Below, piece after piece: positions 9,703 to 16,674 of a stretch of DNA of 17,049 bases. Origin of the DNA: a virus; the UHGV virus genome UHGV-0279031. One strand, 5' to 3'. How positions within the stretch are numbered: position 1 is the stretch's first letter; every line of letters starts with the position of its first letter. Below the pieces are notes generated by a model. It did not search any database. It was given only the letters and a program-made list of their open reading frames with translations, and had not been told where the DNA came from. A program made the position numbers and the translations under genes.

Positions 9703-11013
9703 TTAAATCCGAAGTGATGTGACTCTTCCGGTCGGTTTGACAATAGGGAATTGCTTAACGATGAAATAACCTCCGGCATCATTCGGGTGATCATTGCCAG
9801 ATTTTTTATCAGGCTCCCCCTTCTCATCCCAGACCTGTTGCTCCAGAGATTCGGCATATAACGGGCAACGCTTCACATTAACTTTATAGCGACGCTCACC
9901 ATTGGCATTGCAGAACATTGCATTCATTGAGTTAACGCGATCTTTTACTGGCGGGTTCGAGCTGTTCACCACAACGTTAAAACCAGCCTACTTAAGCTGG
10001 GCTATATCCGTCGTACTTGCGTTACTTGATTTTCTGGAATCCCCGGAAGCATCTGGATAAATATAAATTTCCCTCACTTTCCGGTAATCATTCCCATCAT
10101 ACAGCCAGAAGCGTTCTTTAATGATGCGGATCATATCCGGCGTATCGTAGGCATTGATGATTTCAGTTACCGCACATGGAAGCCCCAAACGCAGCACATG
10201 GACGATTCCCGCCATCTTTCCAACGTTAAAATCCATCCCAATATAAATCGGCTCCCCTGGCTGCTCCACTTCTTCGCAATTATTCAGTTTCCGGTCAAAC
10301 TGATGGTAAACAGTACCACTTGTCAGGTTAGTAAACTGTCCTCGAAGATAGGCTTTAATCAGCTCTGGAGGGTATGATTCAAGAAGCGAAGGAATGTAAT
10401 CTGCTGGCAGGTTCTTTTCATTATCGAAAGTAGATGCCTGCACCAGACCATACAGTGAGGCCAGCTCTGTTTTTTCACGCACGGCTTTAACAAACTGCTC
10501 GTAGACAAATTTGAATCCTTCCGGCGTGGTTGTAACGTCAATACCGTTGCGAAGTCCATCAATCTTATAACGCATACGTGCAATTATCTTGCGCCACGCC
10601 GTTCTGGCTTTTTCCTTCGGCAAAATGTCCAGTTCATCCACCAACGCATTACCAATTTTGAAACCGACGATCGTTTGTGGCTTCTCCATCGATCTGCAGA
10701 TAGTGGTTCCCCGATACTGGCGTCCGTAATAAAAGTGAACCTCTTTATTTCCCTCATTAATTTTTACGTTCAATCCCCAGTCAGCAGCAACTTCTTCCAC
10801 TGTAGGGTAAAAAATATCGCGAATTTGGGGATACGTTGGCGCAAAATATCCCTGATTTATACCTGGATGCTCCCAAATCCCCTTGCATATGCCGCCACAC
10901 CCAACCCATGTTTTGCCCGAGCCAAAACCAGCAATATAGGCTTTAAATTTATGGGGCATTGAAAGAAATCGCGCCTGAGGCACATTAAGCGTCGGAGAGA
11001 TCATCTTCATCAC
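9703..11013 (-). pseudogene. Terminase large subunit interrupted by a single in-frame TAG (plus-strand 9988-9990)
   Basis: N-terminal ORF (341 aa) has Walker A GFGSGKT and a nuclease-domain start (IYIGMDFNVG). The 89-aa ORF 9703..9972 is in the same frame and ends with NDHPNDAGGY, which looks like a terminase nuclease C-terminal motif. Only TAG plus five sense codons separate them (...DIAQLK*AGFNVVVNSS...). Confidence 0.7.
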
Positions 11014-12079
11014 TCCTTACTCTGGCATCAACCACATTAATATTGATCGCCACAGGCTGGGGATATTCATTATCTTCCACCGTTTCGATCTCTTTGCGCA
11101 GCTTCTGGTTTTCCATTCTGCGCCGTTCAATTTCCAGTTCCTGTAGCCGCTTATCTGCACATAAAGCCCCGCCAGCAGAAAACAAACGCAACAATTCACG
11201 CCGGGCGGCAGCCTTATCCTCCAGCAGGATCTCAACGCCGAATTTTCCGAATTTTGCCCCTGCATATAATTGCCGCGCATCCCCATCAAGCAGAGTGGTA
11301 TCAGCCATATAAAGCTGTCCCGTTTCCTCACCGCAGCACTTCGGGCAGTCCGGATTGGGTATGGCGTTATCAACAAAGCCGAGGCCTCCATATTCCGGTT
11401 CGGGTTTGCCATCTCTGGAAGCCTGCGCCGCTGCCTTGTCGAATTCTGCTATATCGCGCCACTGGTAGAGATGATTCTCGCCCCAGCAATAACGGCAGTT
11501 AACACGGCGAAATTGTGCAAGCTGATTGGGGTCGGCCAGGACAATAGCCATCAACTGACTCACTAGTAAATCCAGGTCTGCGGTATAGCGTTTCTGGTAC
11601 TGATTGCGGAAGTAGCTGATAGCGCGAAAAACCCTGGCATTTCTAAGCATACGACTGGCGTTGCTGTTAGCTGTCGCACCTTGCCCCTCATAACCGGCTA
11701 GTCGGTACGCCTCTGTCGGCTTTTTACCCTGAGCAACAAGCATCGCAAACTTAGCCTGCTGGTCAGAAATGCCGAATTCATCGGGACAGAACGAAAATTC
11801 CTCCGCGTCGCCCTCATTCAGGCCCGCATCGAATACTGGCTTTTTTTCCTGAGATTTTTCGTTCCGCTTTTGTGCAGTCTGCGCAGATTTTTTCTGCGCA
11901 CTTTTTTGCGCAGTTTTGCACATTTCTGTCTGCGCATTTTTCGGAGTTTTTTTGATGTAACGACGGGCTGTTGCGTAATTCAGTCCCCTTGCTTCACACC
12001 ATGCCACCGGAGATATACCGGAGCGGGTGTATTCAGCAATATACTCCTGCTGCAACGCCCCCCAGTCCGGTCTGCTCAT
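10985..12079 (-). CDS. Putative terminase small subunit / DNA-packaging DNA-binding protein
   Basis: 364 aa immediately upstream of and overlapping the terminase large subunit; N-terminal HTH-like segment, Cys cluster (CRYCW...CPKCC), basic AQK-rich stretch. Larger than a typical small subunit, so the call is positional. Confidence 0.4.
   Translation of the reverse strand: MSRPDWGALQQEYIAEYTRSGISPVAWCEARGLNYATARRYIKKTPKNAQTEMCKTAQKSAQKKSAQTAQKRNEKSQEKKPVFDAGLNEGDAEEFSFCPDEFGISDQQAKFAMLVAQGKKPTEAYRLAGYEGQGATANSNASRMLRNARVFRAISYFRNQYQKRYTADLDLLVSQLMAIVLADPNQLAQFRRVNCRYCWGENHLYQWRDIAEFDKAAAQASRDGKPEPEYGGLGFVDNAIPNPDCPKCCGEETGQLYMADTTLLDGDARQLYAGAKFGKFGVEILLEDKAAARRELLRLFSAGGALCADKRLQELEIERRRMENQKLRKEIETVEDNEYPQPVAININVVDARVRSDEDDLSDA
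11881..11946. repeat. Array of TGCGCA-like palindromic hexamers, each followed by a T-tract, inside the 5' part of the terS candidate
   Basis: TGTGCA 11881, TGCGCA 11890, TGCGCA 11905, TGCGCA 11917, TGCACA 11927, TGCGCA 11941; spacings of 9-15 bp; T4-7 tracts between them. Confidence 0.6.
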
Positions 12080-12082
12080 CAG

Positions 12083-12334
12083 TTAGTCCTGATTTTTATC
12101 CACCCTGAGTAGTTCGCGCAGAGCAAAGGCATCCCCTTTTCTGGCAAGCTTAAACAATGCCGCTCGTAACTCGGCTTCACCTTTCGCTCTGCCCTTACGG
12201 ATGGCCGCATAAAAATCTGTCATTGCTTCCCGATTTTCTTTCAGTCGGTTCAGATCAACATCCAGAACGTCAGCGATTTGTTGTGCAGTCATCCGGCACG
12301 CTGCCAGAGACTCGACTTTCGAATACGGAATCAT
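12083..12334 (-). CDS. Small helix-turn-helix-like protein (83 aa)
   Basis: GGGGGTGA Shine-Dalgarno 3 nt upstream of ATG 12334; contains MTAQQIADVLDVDLNRL, an HTH-like segment; tightly packed immediately upstream of the terS candidate. Confidence 0.4.
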   Translation of the reverse strand: MIPYSKVESLAACRMTAQQIADVLDVDLNRLKENREAMTDFYAAIRKGRAKGEAELRAALFKLARKGDAFALRELLRVDKNQD

Positions 12335-13220
12335 TTGTCACCCCCATTGATATGCAGGGTGTCTTCTTCCTGTATTTTTCGTGAAGGATTTTTACTGCAG
12401 CGTTGTTCCAGGTGACCTGATGGTGAATGCGTTTATGACTGGCACCCATAAGTGAGATTTTTACGCACGACGGCGCATACATGACGGAGTAAAAACTTTT
12501 AACGTAGGTTCCGGAATCCAGATACAGCTCGGTCATTCCGCCGCTGTTTTTCTGCGTCTGTTTCTGCCCTAACTGGACAGCACCGATCGTCATAAACAAT
12601 TCACCACAGCGACCGAGATTCGTGTACGTATTCACATCCTCGTTAATGCGCCCCATGAATGAGAACGGTCGATCAACCGAACAGATAAAGCTGTTCATTG
12701 CCTTGCGTTTCACCCACGAAGCATGGCCGCCATTGTCACCAAGAAAATCCCCGCCCTGCGACATAGCGATGGAAAGAGCAGGTATTGATTCGTAGTACGC
12801 AAGCATTTCAGAAAGGATCTCATCCAGTTTCCTTATCGGGAAATAGGCCTGGTCATAGTTGCGATCCACCCGAAACTGGAACTCGTGATAATCATCATCG
12901 AGCTGAATGAAGTATTTACACCCGACCAGTTTTGCCTGGTCGAAACAGGCATTACGGGCGTAAAAAATTGAGCGGCGGTCACTAAAATTATCGGCTTCGT
13001 CAAAACGACTAGCAATATCGGCTTTGGAAAATACCAGCACCTGTTCACCAAATTCAGCCATGTACTGATGCCGTGTCTTATCTTCATCATCAACAACGAT
13101 AAAAATTTTCCCGGTATAGCCAGCACGACGCAACGTCCGGTAAGTCAGAACTTTGTCCGGTCGCCCGTGAGTCAGAATAAAGGCGCAAAAATCATCACGC
13201 ATATTCCTCCTCCCCGCCAT
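12270..13220 (-). CDS. Uncharacterised enzyme-like protein with two acidic clusters (VVDDED, QLDDDY)
   Basis: 316-aa ORF; start overlaps the ParB-like gene stop (alternative ATG at 13202 preceded by GGAGGAGG). Strand-then-acidic pattern AFILTHGR...IFIVVDDED...YFIQLDDDY resembles DxD-type nucleotide-dependent transferases, but this is motif-level inference only. Confidence 0.3.
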   Translation of the reverse strand: MAGRRNMRDDFCAFILTHGRPDKVLTYRTLRRAGYTGKIFIVVDDEDKTRHQYMAEFGEQVLVFSKADIASRFDEADNFSDRRSIFYARNACFDQAKLVGCKYFIQLDDDYHEFQFRVDRNYDQAYFPIRKLDEILSEMLAYYESIPALSIAMSQGGDFLGDNGGHASWVKRKAMNSFICSVDRPFSFMGRINEDVNTYTNLGRCGELFMTIGAVQLGQKQTQKNSGGMTELYLDSGTYVKSFYSVMYAPSCVKISLMGASHKRIHHQVTWNNAAVKILHEKYRKKTPCISMGVTNDSVFESRVSGSVPDDCTTNR

Positions 13221-13983
13221 GCATGATCTCCACCATGCGCTGCGTCATTCGGACAAATCCATTTTCAATAGCCTGCTGATAATCAATGATCACCAGCGCC
13301 GACTCCTCGAAAAGGCACTGAATTTCAGCGGGGGCATGAGCGTAATAGTCCGCAATTCTGCTGAAATTAAACACCGTGTGACGTTCTGCTGCACACAGGA
13401 GGAATTTCTCAATATCAGGATCAAGGGACGCCGAACGTATCCGGCTGATCAGCTCCTGAGTTTTCGTATCGTCGTACAGTTCACTGATATCCGGTTTACC
13501 GCCTGACGGCTCATAAACAGGCGTATCAATTTTCGTCGTATACGGCTCCTCCTCATTTCCTGTACCGGGCAAAACATCCGTCAACAGTTCATCAATTTCT
13601 GCCGGGATGAAGCCTGTCAGGGAGACATCAAAATCAGCATTGATTAGGTCCGACAGCTCCATCCGCAACAGATCTTCATCCCAGCCAGCATTCATCGGCA
13701 GGCGATTATCTGCCAGGCGGTACGCCTTTTTCTGCTCATCCGTCAGGCCAGACAGAACAATGACCGGAACAGAATCCATTTTGAGCATTTCAGCCGCCAT
13801 AACACGACCGTGACCCGCAATAATTTCGCCCTTTTCGTCAATCAGCACCGGATTAGTCCAGCCGAATTGCTTAATACTTTCTACCAGTTGTGCCACCTGC
13901 TCAGTACTGTGCGTCCTGGCGTTGTGCGCATACGGTGACAATTCTTGTAATGGGCGATAGACTATCTTTAATTTCTCGCTCAT
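13195..13983 (-). CDS. ParB/sulfiredoxin-like N-terminal domain protein
   Basis: 262 aa; N-terminal region with ...PVLIDEKGEIIAGHGRVMAAEML..., a DGxHR-like ParB-fold motif; this is the position held by ynaK in Rac-like prophages, directly after trkG. Confidence 0.55.
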   Translation of the reverse strand: MSEKLKIVYRPLQELSPYAHNARTHSTEQVAQLVESIKQFGWTNPVLIDEKGEIIAGHGRVMAAEMLKMDSVPVIVLSGLTDEQKKAYRLADNRLPMNAGWDEDLLRMELSDLINADFDVSLTGFIPAEIDELLTDVLPGTGNEEEPYTTKIDTPVYEPSGGKPDISELYDDTKTQELISRIRSASLDPDIEKFLLCAAERHTVFNFSRIADYYAHAPAEIQCLFEESALVIIDYQQAIENGFVRMTQRMVEIMHGGEEEYA

Positions 13984-13998: not shown

Positions 13999-14034
13999 GA
14001 ATAAAACGCACCCCAGCAGCCAGTGCTACTGGGG
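13999..14034 (-). terminator. Possible terminator downstream of trkG
   Basis: Minus-strand RNA CCCCAG-(12-nt loop)-CUGGGG followed by UGCG-UUUUAUU; the loop is longer than typical, so the call is weak. Confidence 0.3.
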
Positions 14035-14120
14035 GCGGAGGTGTTGCTGGTAAAGTTAGGTATTGGATCAATGAGCGAGTCAACATAATATTAAACTCAC
14101 AATTATAAATCAGCCATATA

Positions 14121-15578
14121 TTAGGAGCGCCAAAAAAAACCTGAAAACAATATAATAACAGGATAAATTTCAAGGCGACCAAGAATCATAGCTATGCACA
14201 TTAAATATTTTGCAATGTCATTAAGCACTCCGAATGACGATGCAGTAGCCCCAAAACCTAATCCCATATTATTAATACATGCAGCCACTGTTGCAAATGA
14301 TGTAAGAAAATCATATCCCATACCATTTAACACCAGTATAAAAAACACCGTGAAGAGAGTATAAAGAAAAAAGAAACTCCATACAGACCTCATTACACGA
14401 TCTGTAACTATCTTCCCTCCTACATTTACACTCAACAACGCTCTGGGATGAGAAAGCTGATTTATCTCGTGTTTGCTTTGTTTGAAAAGTATAAGAAATC
14501 GAAGTGACTTAATTCCACCACAGGTTGAACCTATACATCCCCCAAAGAAACTTGACAACAGCAAAAACACTATCGTGTGCGTGGGCCAGTTTGCATAATC
14601 CTGCGTAGCTAAACCATTATCAGTGAGCATGGAGCTGGCAAGAAAAAACGAATGAATAAAACTTCCATGCAAGTCATACATACCTATATGCCAGACCTGG
14701 AAAGAGGTAACAATGATCACCCCTAAGGCTATTAACAGAAAGAAACGAAGTTCAATATCTCTGATTAAAGGTTTTATCGTTTTTCTGCTAATAACAATAT
14801 ACCAAAGAGTGAAGTTGAAAGCCGATAGCAGGGAAAAAGAACCAGCCACCAGCTCAACCAAATAGTTATTAAAATATCCGATACTCTCGCTATGAGTTGA
14901 GAAACCACCAAGCGAAACTGTGGAAATCCCGTGACAAATAGCATCAAACAAAGGCATTCCTGCAAGTCTATAACAGACAATACAAGCAATACCTAATAAA
15001 GAATAAGTTATCCACAGTGTCCGTGACGTATCGGCCAGGCGGGGAGTGAGTTTGTCATCCTTAAATGGCCCCGGCATTTCTGACTGATAAAGCTTTGCAC
15101 CACCAATACCCAATAATGGCAATACTGCAACCGCCAGAACAATAACTCCTAAACCACCTATAAAATTTAACTGTGACCGATAGTACAAATATGCCCGAGG
15201 TAATGAACTAACATCATCAATTACAGTTGCTCCTGTTGTTGTTATTCCAGAAACCCCTTCAAACAGAGCATCAATGAACGTTAAATTAAGTTCTGAGTCA
15301 ATCCATAAAGGGAATGCACTAATAACAGAAAACAAAATCCAAAACATTACAATTATAATAAACCCATCACGGGTACGTAATTGAATGCCAGATTTCTTAG
15401 TTGTATACCACGCTCCGCCACCAATGCAAAAAAATATAACGAAAGTTATAAAGAAAACGAACAGGCTTTTTTCTTTATAAAACAATGCTACAACCATTGG
15501 TGGCAACATTGAAAGACTATAGAGCCAAACCAGGAACCCACACATATGAGTAACAACTCTTACATGAGATGTATTCAT
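14121..15578 (-). CDS. trkG: Trk-system potassium uptake membrane protein TrkG (TrkH/TrkG family)
   Basis: 485 aa from ATG 15578 (MNTSHVRVVTHMCGFLVWLYSL...), matching my recollection of E. coli Rac-encoded TrkG; many hydrophobic segments; markedly AT-rich relative to the flanking phage genes. The ORF track starts 18 nt upstream at a TTG. Confidence 0.85.
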   Translation of the reverse strand: MNTSHVRVVTHMCGFLVWLYSLSMLPPMVVALFYKEKSLFVFFITFVIFFCIGGGAWYTTKKSGIQLRTRDGFIIIVMFWILFSVISAFPLWIDSELNLTFIDALFEGVSGITTTGATVIDDVSSLPRAYLYYRSQLNFIGGLGVIVLAVAVLPLLGIGGAKLYQSEMPGPFKDDKLTPRLADTSRTLWITYSLLGIACIVCYRLAGMPLFDAICHGISTVSLGGFSTHSESIGYFNNYLVELVAGSFSLLSAFNFTLWYIVISRKTIKPLIRDIELRFFLLIALGVIIVTSFQVWHIGMYDLHGSFIHSFFLASSMLTDNGLATQDYANWPTHTIVFLLLSSFFGGCIGSTCGGIKSLRFLILFKQSKHEINQLSHPRALLSVNVGGKIVTDRVMRSVWSFFFLYTLFTVFFILVLNGMGYDFLTSFATVAACINNMGLGFGATASSFGVLNDIAKYLMCIAMILGRLEIYPVIILFSGFFWRS

Positions 15579-15715
15579 ATCTAAATATTCTTTCAATTAT
15601 AACCACCTTGCTGCAATATTATGATTATACTGTATAAAATTTAACTCCTCTTAGATCTTACTTCACTGTTCCTTATGAAACAATCATCAAAATGAATCAT
15701 ATTGTAGTTAAGATT

Positions 15716-16180
15716 TTACTTTAAACACTGCTCGGTTATGTATTGCTGAGCACCTTCAAGTTGGGCCTGCATCATTACCAGTCGTTCCCGGAGGGTGAAA
15801 TAATCCCGTTCAGCGGTGTCTGCCAGTCGGGGGGAGGCTGCATTATCCACGCCGGAGGCGGTGGTGGCTTCACGCACTGACTGACAGACTGCTTTGATGT
15901 GCAACCGACGACGACCAGCGGCAACATCATCACGCAGAGCATCATTTTCAGCTTTAGCATCAGCTAACTCCTTCGTGTATTTTGCATCGAGCGCAGCAAC
16001 ATCACGCTGACGCATCTGCATGTCAGTAATTGCCGCGTTCGCCAGCTTCAGTTCTCTGGCATTTTTGTCGCGCTGGGCTTTGTAGGTAATGGCGTTATCA
16101 CGGTAATGATTAACAGCCCATGACAGGCAGACGATGATGCAGATAACCAGAGCGGAGATAATCGCGGTTACTCTGTTCAT
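15716..16180 (-). CDS. Rz: Rz i-spanin
   Basis: From ATG 16180 (ATGA overlap with the endolysin stop) the translation [60 protein letters not shown]... is near-identical to lambda Rz. Confidence 0.9.
15775..15960 (-). CDS. Rz1: Rz1 o-spanin lipoprotein, embedded in the +1 frame of Rz
   Basis: [52 protein letters not shown]: signal peptide, lipobox VVGC and proline-rich body, as in lambda Rz1. Confidence 0.9.
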
Positions 16181-16674
16181 TGCTGACCCCACAAACAGAT
16201 TTCACGCTCAATCTCACGACGAGTCATGAGACCTTTCCATTGCTTACCGCCAGCATATGTCCAGCGACGTAGCTGATCACATGCGCCTTTGATATCGCCC
16301 TGGTTTATTTTGCGAAGAAGCGTCGATGTTCTGAAATTGCCAGCACCCACGTTGTAAACGAATGAGTAAAGAGCGCCGCGCGTTGTTTCCGGTATATCGA
16401 CTTTGATGTACGGGTTAATTTGTCTGGCGACAGTGGCAAGGTCTTTATTCAAGAGTGTTTTGCATTCTGCTTTGGTATACGTTTTACCGAGCATGATGTC
16501 TTTTCCTGTATGCCCGTGACATACAGTCCATACACCAACAATATCTTTGTATGGTATGTAGCTGACACCTTCCAGACCATCGTTACCACTTGGGCCAGTG
16601 ATTAACACTGATGCTATAGCAATTGCTCCGCCACCAATAGCAGCAGCAACGGCTTTTCGTAATGATGGAGGCAT
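16177..16674 (-). CDS. R: SAR endolysin, P21 R-type (T4-lysozyme-like glycoside hydrolase)
   Basis: [57 protein letters not shown]...: Gly/Ala-rich signal-anchor-release N-terminus plus E/D/T catalytic residues; near-identical to phage 21 endolysin as recalled. Confidence 0.9.

Follow-up and report, generated by a model that had tools for sequence, protein, structure and literature searches.

A TAGT-family glycosyltransferase and its acidic, often ParB-fused partner: a conserved two-gene module of a Rac-type Escherichia coli prophage that may modify DNA

The only role known for phage glycosyltransferases of the TAGT family (Pfam PF20691) is to complete hydroxymethyl-cytosine and hydroxymethyl-uracil pathways as their final step. 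The TAGT of phages T2 and T6 is a beta-glucosyl-hydroxymethylcytosine (HMC) alpha-glucosyltransferase, which adds a second glucose to glucosyl-5-hydroxymethylcytosine (glucosyl-hmC) (PMC13390438, PMC13216743), and phage enzymes of the GT-A fold glycosylate the 5-hydroxymethylcytosine (5hmC) that is supplied by a methyltransferase and 5mYOX (Pyle et al., bioRxiv 10.1101/2023.12.21.572611). Here we describe a TAGT-family gene and the gene before it in a stretch of 17,049 nucleotides of the virus genome UHGV-0279031 (hereafter the window, at its full length); this DNA is the late part of an E. coli prophage of the Rac type. An earlier note, made from the letters of this DNA alone, had pointed to two overlapping open reading frames (ORFs) on the minus strand. 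Both exist; the first encodes a partner protein with a ParB/sulfiredoxin (Srx) N-domain and an acidic C-terminal domain (CTD), the second the glycosyltransferase (GT) (Table 1). We see an even chance that the pair is expressed late and forms a DNA-directed glycosyltransferase of two subunits, the ParB-like protein serving to target or activate the enzyme.

The name TAGT goes back to Iyer et al. 2013 (NAR 41:7635), as cited in PMC13229309, who also suggested that modification enzymes are directed by ParB. ParB genes are enriched in 5mYOX pathways (10.1101/2023.12.21.572611, PMC13229309), and the phage thymine dioxygenase 5mYOX176 requires its ParB-like protein ParB176 on double-stranded DNA, such pairs being cognate-specific (O'Toole et al., PNAS 2026, PMC13229309). 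ParB176 has no DNA-binding domain, mutations in its nucleoside triphosphate (NTP) site did not abolish activation, and the ParB-dependent dioxygenases carry a class-specific C-terminal extension (PMC13229309). Fusions of the ParB fold with methyltransferases are enriched in prophages, according to a study in which glycosyltransferases are unmentioned (Kaljevic et al., PNAS 2025, PMC12704722). Pyle et al. list ParB-like proteins, like terminase, polymerase and clamp, merely as neighbours of phage glycosyltransferases (10.1101/2023.12.21.572611). Searching the literature for ynaK, for ParB with TAGT and for 'GREB1-related', we found no functional study of the pair. In the DpdA/DpdB and DndB-type systems, a ParB/Srx-fold protein cooperates with an enzyme that modifies a DNA base or the DNA backbone.

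The window GT shares with the TAGT proteins of T2/T6 and with the enzymes of Pyle et al. the family, the GT-A fold, the DXD motif and the phage origin. Unlike them, it lacks a nearby TET/5mYOX gene, dCMP/dUMP hydroxymethylase or primary glucosyltransferase, and it has a conserved basic extension of ~60 residues and a gene for an acidic-CTD partner, which always stands before it. As in the 5mYOX176/ParB176 pair, a modification-type enzyme is encoded beside a ParB-like protein that has kept the nucleotide-binding domain and a C-terminal domain but no DNA-binding domain that can be recognised; the enzyme, however, is a glycosyltransferase and not an iron/2-oxoglutarate dioxygenase, and the acidic CTD is distinct and exists also without ParB. 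The ParB_N–methyltransferase fusions (phrog_498, PADLOC MTase_II) possess a homologous N-domain and often share the slot at the start of the packaging genes. The role that we propose for the pair would follow the same logic, that is, late modification of DNA before packaging, whereas in the window the effector is a separate GT with apparently coupled translation and ParB is joined to a putative adaptor domain.

Concerning the GT, the Pfam TAGT model matches residues 14-228 (E=4.1e-34, 118.8 bits against a cut-off of 27.5), PF20691 is precomputed on all listed homologues, phrog_842 is matched at 8e-104, and newer PGAP runs name the protein 'GREB1-related protein'. The motifs AFILTHGR, IFIVVDDED and YFIQLDDDY (residues 13-20, 39-47 and 103-111), from whose DxD-like arrangement the earlier note had suspected a nucleotide-dependent transferase, are all in place, and family and fold agree with that suspicion. 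The AlphaFold2 (AF2) models of both proteins were built on shallow alignments, with low confidence at the end of the CTD and at the C-terminus of the GT; that of the GT is confident at residues 1-156 and poor after 237. Foldseek matches in the PDB include SpsA, SunS/ThuS, TarS, COLGALT1, glycogenin and GnT-I (GT-A fold; probability at least 0.98). These are generic for the GT-A fold; the best matches among viral models are TAGT-domain proteins. A search of PDB sequences gave no significant match to the GT, so that no solved TAGT structure is found by sequence.

The DXD motif is invariant in 16 homologues that are 59-82% identical to the window GT, and so are D74/E75, E194/D195 and H266/H267 (316-aa numbering, as in Table 1). 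The basic extension beyond the Pfam model has the invariant residues G237, T238, Y239, K241, S242, F243, Y244, M247, P250, R264, H266, H267 and W271; residues 237-290 have a net charge of +8 and a pI of 10, and phrog_31222 covers residues 205-286. This extension may be a docking or acceptor-binding region. The C-terminal tail is absent from the more distant aligned homologues, other members of the family ending at about residue 288-290. T2 and T6 were not retrieved with tblastn at E<=1e-10 from the GT query, and for this reason we place the window GT in a separate TAGT clade. The clade is best described as CTD-partnered, often ParB-tethered, orphan TAGT; the association with TET enzymes to which the TAGT family owes its name was not found in the annotated loci.

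The partner matches phrog_620 over its full length (1.7e-90), and its AF2 model has a predicted local distance difference test score of 75 overall and below 50 at residues 138-156. The ParB/Srx fold that had been proposed from the motif IAGHGR (residues 55-60) is confirmed for the N-domain: Pfam ParB_N (PF02195) scores 29.3 bits against a cut-off of 26.3, and Foldseek returns Noc (7nfu, 2.5e-6), PadC, ParB-CDP (6sdk), KorB, sulfiredoxin and SerK with a probability of 1.0. This domain is 36-58% identical to the N-domains in 288 phage records, many of which are annotated as DNA methyltransferases, and it matches phrog_498 (6e-51) and PADLOC MTase_II (1.5e-38), both over residues ~3-144 only. As judged from these matches, its closest relatives are the N-domains of phage DNA methyltransferases and not partition ParBs. 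The connection with DndB, DpdB and DUF262 drawn in the earlier note stands at the level of the fold; towards DndB/DpdB there is no sequence-family match, there are no dnd/dpd genes, and the chemistry is another. Among 36 aligned N-domains the nucleotide-site residues are mostly kept (G57 in 35, R60 in 30 and N93 in 34). TIGR00180 reaches 38 bits on the partner, below its cut-off of 58, and covers residues 11-94 only. No methyltransferase motifs are present in the C-terminal half of the partner (Pfam and partner alignment). A canonical partition ParB (ParABS) was considered and ruled out: of such a protein only the N-domain is present, no helix-turn-helix (HTH) domain and no recognised dimerisation domain is found among the Pfam matches, and no ParA-like gene was found in the annotated E. 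coli loci.

The linker that follows has Y148, P155 and Y157 invariant in 41 partners from many phyla. In the same 41 partners the CTD has the invariant residues L195, R201, A211, Y214, E226, I232, D234, A238 and G242. Its pI is ~4.4 and its net charge -14 in the window copy, the charge ranging from -11 to -19 across CTDs. In PHROGs the CTD matches the C-terminal part of phrog_620 only and has no PHROG of its own, and it has no significant match among PDB sequences. A likeness to designed armadillo repeats was below threshold and was treated as chance. A small metallo-enzyme that creates the acceptor was also ruled out for the CTD, as a single conserved histidine (H202) with E226 and D234 would not supply enough ligands and the fold gives no support.

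This CTD, which the earlier note had missed, is the domain that is conserved as the partner of the GT. The GT-based scan used one genome per species and gave 66 loci. In 62 of them the next ORF upstream, with the same orientation, encodes a partner homologue; the other four are contig edges or gene fragments. The loci belong to Proteobacteria, Bacteroidota, several classes of Firmicutes, Planctomycetota, Acidobacteriota, Saccharibacteria and others. GT identity is 45-99% across the 66 loci, the pair being conserved across phyla at an identity of 45-57%, and clustering of the neighbouring ORFs leaves the partner and the GT as the only families common across loci. Starting from the other gene, a profile search with the CTD found >3,300 proteins; nearly all of the 120 listed are stand-alone proteins of ~130 aa with no Pfam domain, and in three contigs with a stand-alone CTD the small gene overlaps the TAGT gene by 11 nt. 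Of 80 CTD loci of IMG/VR, 73 have the GT directly downstream and six have it within 1 kb; the last one lies at the edge of its contig. Complete phage genomes gave 34 GT-positive records, and these include every one of the 28 that are CTD-positive. The remaining six, in which BLAST gave no CTD hit, are either degraded (Ld17, LL-Ku) or belong to the Porphyromonas phage (two records), and a hidden Markov model finds the CTD at 3.5e-16 in the one of the latter that was tested. Co-occurrence thus held from either gene in every locus with readable flanks. Routine separation of the two genes, which the earlier note had named as counting against a joint module, is not what the neighbourhoods contain. 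Homology searches indicate that the constant partner of the GT is the acidic CTD and not the ParB domain.

The module is found also in Actinobacteria, in Lactobacillus phages phi jlb1 and c5, in Nocardia phage NTR1, in Vibrio phages of 190 kb and in the archaeal virus HHTV-2, where it consists of genes 21 and 22. Two tandem CTD+GT pairs, each enzyme with its own small partner, are present in one locus (L052, 6472-8918). Separately, three loci (L032, L048 and L051) have two GT paralogues and one partner. Tandem pairs and paralogues suggest stepwise (di)glycosylation or different specificities. The mean pairwise identity is 45% for the helical core of the CTD and 50% for the GT. A mirror-tree comparison of GT and CTD on crudely trimmed sequences gave r=0.35 (Mantel p=0.02), which is too weak for co-evolution beyond co-inheritance. 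Counts in the representative library (31,669, 14,231 and 988 at three E-value thresholds) come from a profile that included the ParB columns; they mix ParB_N-only proteins with two-domain partners and are not the size of the CTD family.

The longest ORFs extend over 13195-13983 (262 aa) and 12270-13220 (316 aa) and overlap by 26 nt. The genes do overlap, as had been noted before, but by less: the true start of the GT is Met7 (ATG at 13202), since all 15 aligned homologues start there or only a few residues away and RefSeq agrees, and the real overlap is the 8 nt ATGCGTGA (13195-13202), behind a GGAGG site. Among 50 loci, 17 have a stop/start overlap of 8 nt and 22 one of 11 nt (39 of the 50, in unrelated phyla); this conserved overlap points to coupled translation and a fixed stoichiometry. 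The two ORFs are genuine genes and did not arise by chance, each of the two proteins having >7,000 database homologues. Against the copies of Serratia, Superficieibacter and Pantoea, the nonsynonymous divergence (dN) is 0.14-0.30 and the synonymous divergence (dS) is saturated, and dN/dS is not computable for most pairs for that reason; the sequences nevertheless indicate that the pair is under strong purifying selection. Intact copies form clusters of 2,693 and 1,812 members. In many E. coli variants a deletion has fused the GT to tail-fibre, TerS or minor-head genes (P0004-P0043), which records repeated decay of the Rac prophage region. One natural read-through fusion of CTD and GT was found (P0081), and it is degraded.

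Regarding genomic position, the order partner, GT, terS, terL and portal is found in at least 37 of the 47 loci with enough flank. The forms with a CTD and no ParB_N are found in replication modules, either between DNA polymerase A and the beta clamp or by primase-helicase or DUF1376 genes; in Vibrio phage pv27, a CTD-only form lies between primase and helicase. The G+C content of the pair (0.47-0.50) is that of the phage backbone, and that of trkG is 0.34-0.39. A terminator-like hairpin with a 10-bp stem follows trkG (14011-14034). The pair therefore belongs to the late operon, and trkG (14011-15596 region), AT-rich and with a hairpin after it, looks like the actual horizontally inserted moron. 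The earlier note was right to place the pair between trkG and the packaging genes but not to call this a moron slot, given the backbone composition and the same position in unrelated phages. Nor is the pair lambdoid accessory cargo: it forms a module that is widely conserved and either stands first in the packaging operon or lies in replication modules. Promoter-like sites around the pair are at chance level (4 found, 4.0 expected), no terminator was found between the pair and terS, and the genes of the pair overlap their neighbours.

We propose the following mechanism. The 310-aa GT-A protein with its DXD motif would be the catalytic subunit, moving a sugar from a nucleotide-activated donor. 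The partner would be obligate, its acidic CTD and YTxKIxxPxYEP linker binding the GT, probably via the basic extension; the charges are complementary (-11 to -19 on the CTD, +8 on the extension), which supports such a complex. Where present, the ParB/Srx N-domain would bring the GT to double-stranded phage DNA or activate it there, by analogy with the ParB-like activator of 5mYOX176. Both proteins would be products of the packaging operon, synthesised jointly at a late stage of infection, and progeny DNA would be modified just before packaging and so be protected from nucleases in the next host. A role on DNA is favoured because the TAGT proteins characterised so far work on DNA, the ParB_N is of the methyltransferase type, the module adjoins terS/terL and the CTD-only forms lie in replication modules. 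Of the DNA-modification, anti-restriction and defence roles that the earlier note had offered together, DNA modification has the best support; the defence role is not supported, no PADLOC model matching the GT.

A number of observations weigh against this proposal. Over 10 kb, the Pfam annotation of six loci lists neither a TET/JBP (5mYOX) gene nor a hydroxymethylase of the thymidylate-synthase type, the annotations of the E. coli prophage and of the HHTV-2 region surrounding the pair contain neither precursor family, and among 104 de-duplicated upstream neighbours both families stay below two members, so that at most one protein could match. With no precursor gene listed, the known TAGT acceptors (5hmC, 5-hydroxymethyluracil (5hmU) and glucosyl-hmC) appear to be missing. 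Pyle et al. found that ~65% of phage GT contigs lack 5mYOX/ThyS and judged DNA hypermodification 'less likely' for them (10.1101/2023.12.21.572611). The DNA of phage phiJL001, which carries a T6-TAGT-like gene but none for base synthesis, shows normal digestion by restriction enzymes (PMC4276943). Human GREB1, a relative of TAGT, reportedly acts on a protein, as an O-GlcNAc transferase (PMC7968844). On the side of the partner, the box II arginine is lost in 6 of the 36 N-domains, some modules have no ParB domain at all, the whole protein is acidic (pI ~4.5), and the HTH DNA-binding domain is missing from its Pfam matches.

Other neighbours of the module bear on donor and acceptor. No primary glucosyltransferase was found near the pair. 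The commonest families among the 104 upstream neighbours are DnaB (3), PAPS reductase (3), C5 methyltransferases (2) and N6/N4 methyltransferases (2). The PAPS-reductase-domain proteins are DndC/IbrA-like and lie upstream of the module (e.g. L052, 2822-3832). In other settings this family is often paired with ParB-like proteins. A gap of ~0.9 kb separates partner and GT in five IMG/VR loci (L134, L144, L147, L151 and L154). In the one locus examined (L144, 4326-5321), it holds a gene of 331 aa with histidine-phosphatase and cytidylyltransferase-like parts, which probably makes a nucleotide-activated donor and so hints at donors other than an ordinary UDP-sugar in some cases. In other loci, genes for an NTP-transferase, an epimerase and a GDP-mannose dehydratase are found near the module. 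Within the proposal of a DNA-directed enzyme there is the narrower version, rather improbable in our view, that the GT, activated by the ParB-like partner or kept on the DNA by it, uses no hydroxymethylpyrimidine precursor and joins a sugar or other nucleotide-activated group straight to the backbone or to a canonical base, perhaps only at specific sites that are sparse.

Among the alternatives, protein glycosylation survives best, although we consider it unlikely. The acceptor would most simply be Tyr148 or Tyr157 (or Thr/Ser149) in the partner's own linker, and ParB would be cargo or a regulated target. Glycogenin glucosylates a tyrosine, and SunS/ThuS glycosylate an adjacently encoded peptide. 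The invariant tyrosines in a segment predicted to be disordered, the constant adjacency of the GT and a small conserved protein, the lack of a visible DNA acceptor in the searched neighbourhoods, the peptide S-glycosyltransferases and glycogenin among the structural neighbours and the reported activity of GREB1 (PMC7968844) are all in keeping with a protein acceptor. The structural matches, however, are generic for the GT-A fold, and the core of the CTD is as conserved as the GT and has invariant Arg, Glu and Asp, which exceeds the needs of a passive acceptor. In addition, the contexts are DNA-centred (methyltransferase-type ParB_N, replisome genes and terminase), and a glycosylated acidic ParB-like protein has no known role.

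It is improbable, and somewhat more so than a protein acceptor, that the GT is a conventional TAGT acting on 5hmC, 5hmU or a glycosylated base, with a precursor supplied by an unrecognised phage gene, by another part of the genome or by a helper or co-infecting element; in the Rac-like E. coli prophages the pair would, on this view, be a relic or idle. Membership of PF20691 points this way, as do the proven phage TAGT/GT-A DNA enzymes, all of which use hydroxymethylpyrimidines (PMC13390438, PMC13216743, 10.1101/2023.12.21.572611), the enrichment of ParB genes in 5mYOX pathways (10.1101/2023.12.21.572611, PMC13229309) and the C5 and N6/N4 methyltransferases upstream in a few loci. The annotated loci, however, have no 5mYOX/ThyS beside the module, and at most one of the 104 other neighbours could match. 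Purifying selection, the 45-57% identity across phyla, the intact copies in their thousands in E. coli data and the occurrence in small temperate phages that use the deoxynucleoside triphosphate pools of the host are unlike an idle gene.

Much less probable is a packaging or partition accessory, that is, a ParB-like nuclease or DNA organiser that serves the terminase or prophage maintenance, with the GT an unrelated neighbour that acts, for example, on the virion or the surface. HNH proteins assist cos cleavage, the pair lies immediately upstream of terS/terL in most loci, the database label is 'ParB-like partition nuclease', and one contig (L074) has further GT2 genes among its head genes; but the strict co-occurrence is with the CTD and not with the ParB domain, the CTD-only forms are in replication modules far from the terminase, neither ParA nor a parS-type HTH nor a recognised dimerisation domain was found, and the conserved translational overlap argues for a single functional unit. 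Last, a defence or superinfection-exclusion module expressed by the lysogen, which would modify or sense incoming phage DNA, is hardly credible: no PADLOC defence-system model matches the GT, the ParB domain matches the methyltransferase model only, the promoter-like signal is at chance level with no terminator before terS, the composition is that of the phage backbone, and Nocardia phage NTR1, a carrier of the module, is presumably lytic. ParB/Srx folds do recur in GmrSD DUF262 and DndB (PMC12373910, PMC12704722), one of the 41 partners has a weak GmrSD_N match, and the pair adjoins the trkG moron, but the module is also present in the lytic Vibrio phage pv27 (no lysogeny genes reported, PMC12063606).

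The analysis defines a large and coherent part of the unexplained phage GT set as an obligate two-gene unit with an unannotated acidic domain that is often fused to ParB. As the pair is native to Rac-like prophages of E. coli, the question of the acceptor is directly testable in a standard laboratory host. If the target is DNA, the consequences would include evasion of restriction and of type IV/glycosylase defence, sequencing artefacts in prophage DNA and a possible new DNA-labelling enzyme. Direct glycosylation of canonical DNA, if true, would add a new class of reaction, one used by temperate phages of many phyla and by archaeal viruses. Should the partner protein prove to be the target, the pair would be a new viral protein-glycosylation system. 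The pair would also be a second case, after the thymine dioxygenases, of a ParB-fold cofactor for a modification enzyme.

The features of the window and their coordinates are presented in Table 1.

Table 1. Features of the window, in their order along the minus strand; residue numbers of the GT follow the 316-aa ORF.
Feature	Position (nt)	Strand	Details
Lysis genes	15716-16674	-	
trkG	14121-15596	-	
Partner gene (full-length 'YnaK')	13195-13983	-	262 aa; ParB/Srx N-domain, linker motif, acidic CTD
ParB/Srx (ParB-CTPase fold) N-domain	13579-13983	-	Residues 1-135; box II G57-H-G-R60, box III D92-N93
Linker motif Y148-T-x-K-I-x-x-P155-x-Y157-E-P...P164	13492-13542	-	Segment predicted disordered
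Acidic CTD	13198-13563	-	Residues 141-262; helical; no Pfam family
Gene junction	13195-13215	-	Shine-Dalgarno-like GGGGAGGAGG 13206-13215; GT ATG 13200-13202; partner TGA 13195-13197
TAGT-family GT-A glycosyltransferase gene	12270-13202	-	310 aa from the conserved start; RefSeq WP_001614535
DXD motif D108-D109-D110	12891-12899	-	Metal/nucleotide-sugar signature of GT-A enzymes
Basic C-terminal extension of the GT	12351-12536	-	Residues 229-290; beyond the Pfam TAGT model
GT C-terminal tail	12273-12350	-	~26 residues; Escherichia/Shigella copies, also L003 and L004; overlaps the next ORF
Small downstream ORF	12083-12334	-	83 aa; phrog_309 at 8e-23; resembles the HTH part of terminase small subunits
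terS	10985-12079	-	364 aa
terL	9703-11013	-	Interrupted by an in-frame stop (see text)
Portal		-	
Head genes		-	

The segment 12083-14120 is 100% identical to E. coli 30COLEC. It has full or partial matches in 1,610 of 5,426 complete E. coli genomes (~30%), with a coverage of at least 80% in 867, and ten phage records also match it with an identity of 98.5-98.6%. PGAP/RefSeq annotates 'ynaK' as an incomplete pseudogene made of the first ~86 codons (13726-13983), while the ORF of 262 aa is actually intact. The truncated call is apparently a transfer of the name from the truncated gene of K-12, since ynaK of the K-12 Rac prophage corresponds to these first codons. K-12 keeps this 5' remnant alone, whereas the window has the intact gene and the glycosyltransferase; in the K-12 Rac prophage we take the glycosyltransferase and the packaging genes to be deleted, following the K-12 map.

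The RefSeq version of the small downstream ORF has 69 aa and starts at 12292. In the clustering of neighbouring ORFs it is seen in Enterobacterales loci only, and it is part of the packaging genes, outside the conserved pair. As a third component of the module it was ruled out, being confined to Enterobacterales and TerS-like. The terL gene contains a premature in-frame stop at 9988-9990 (…DIAQLK*AGFNVV…), which cuts the 433-aa gene into ORFs of 341 and 89 aa; in strain EC2 (L001) the gene is annotated as intact. This prophage copy is therefore probably packaging-defective. The terS product has a long low-complexity stretch rich in Lys, Gln and Ala (…KTAQKSAQKKSAQTAQKRNEKSQEKK…) between the N-terminal HTH and the Terminase_2 domain.

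Two further loci contain other genes of interest. Radical-SAM and GT9 genes are found just downstream of the module in L071 (7053-8455). In the HK97-like contig L074, the capsid gene is directly followed by a run of four GT2-family genes (17837-20316), and this cluster may serve virion glycosylation.

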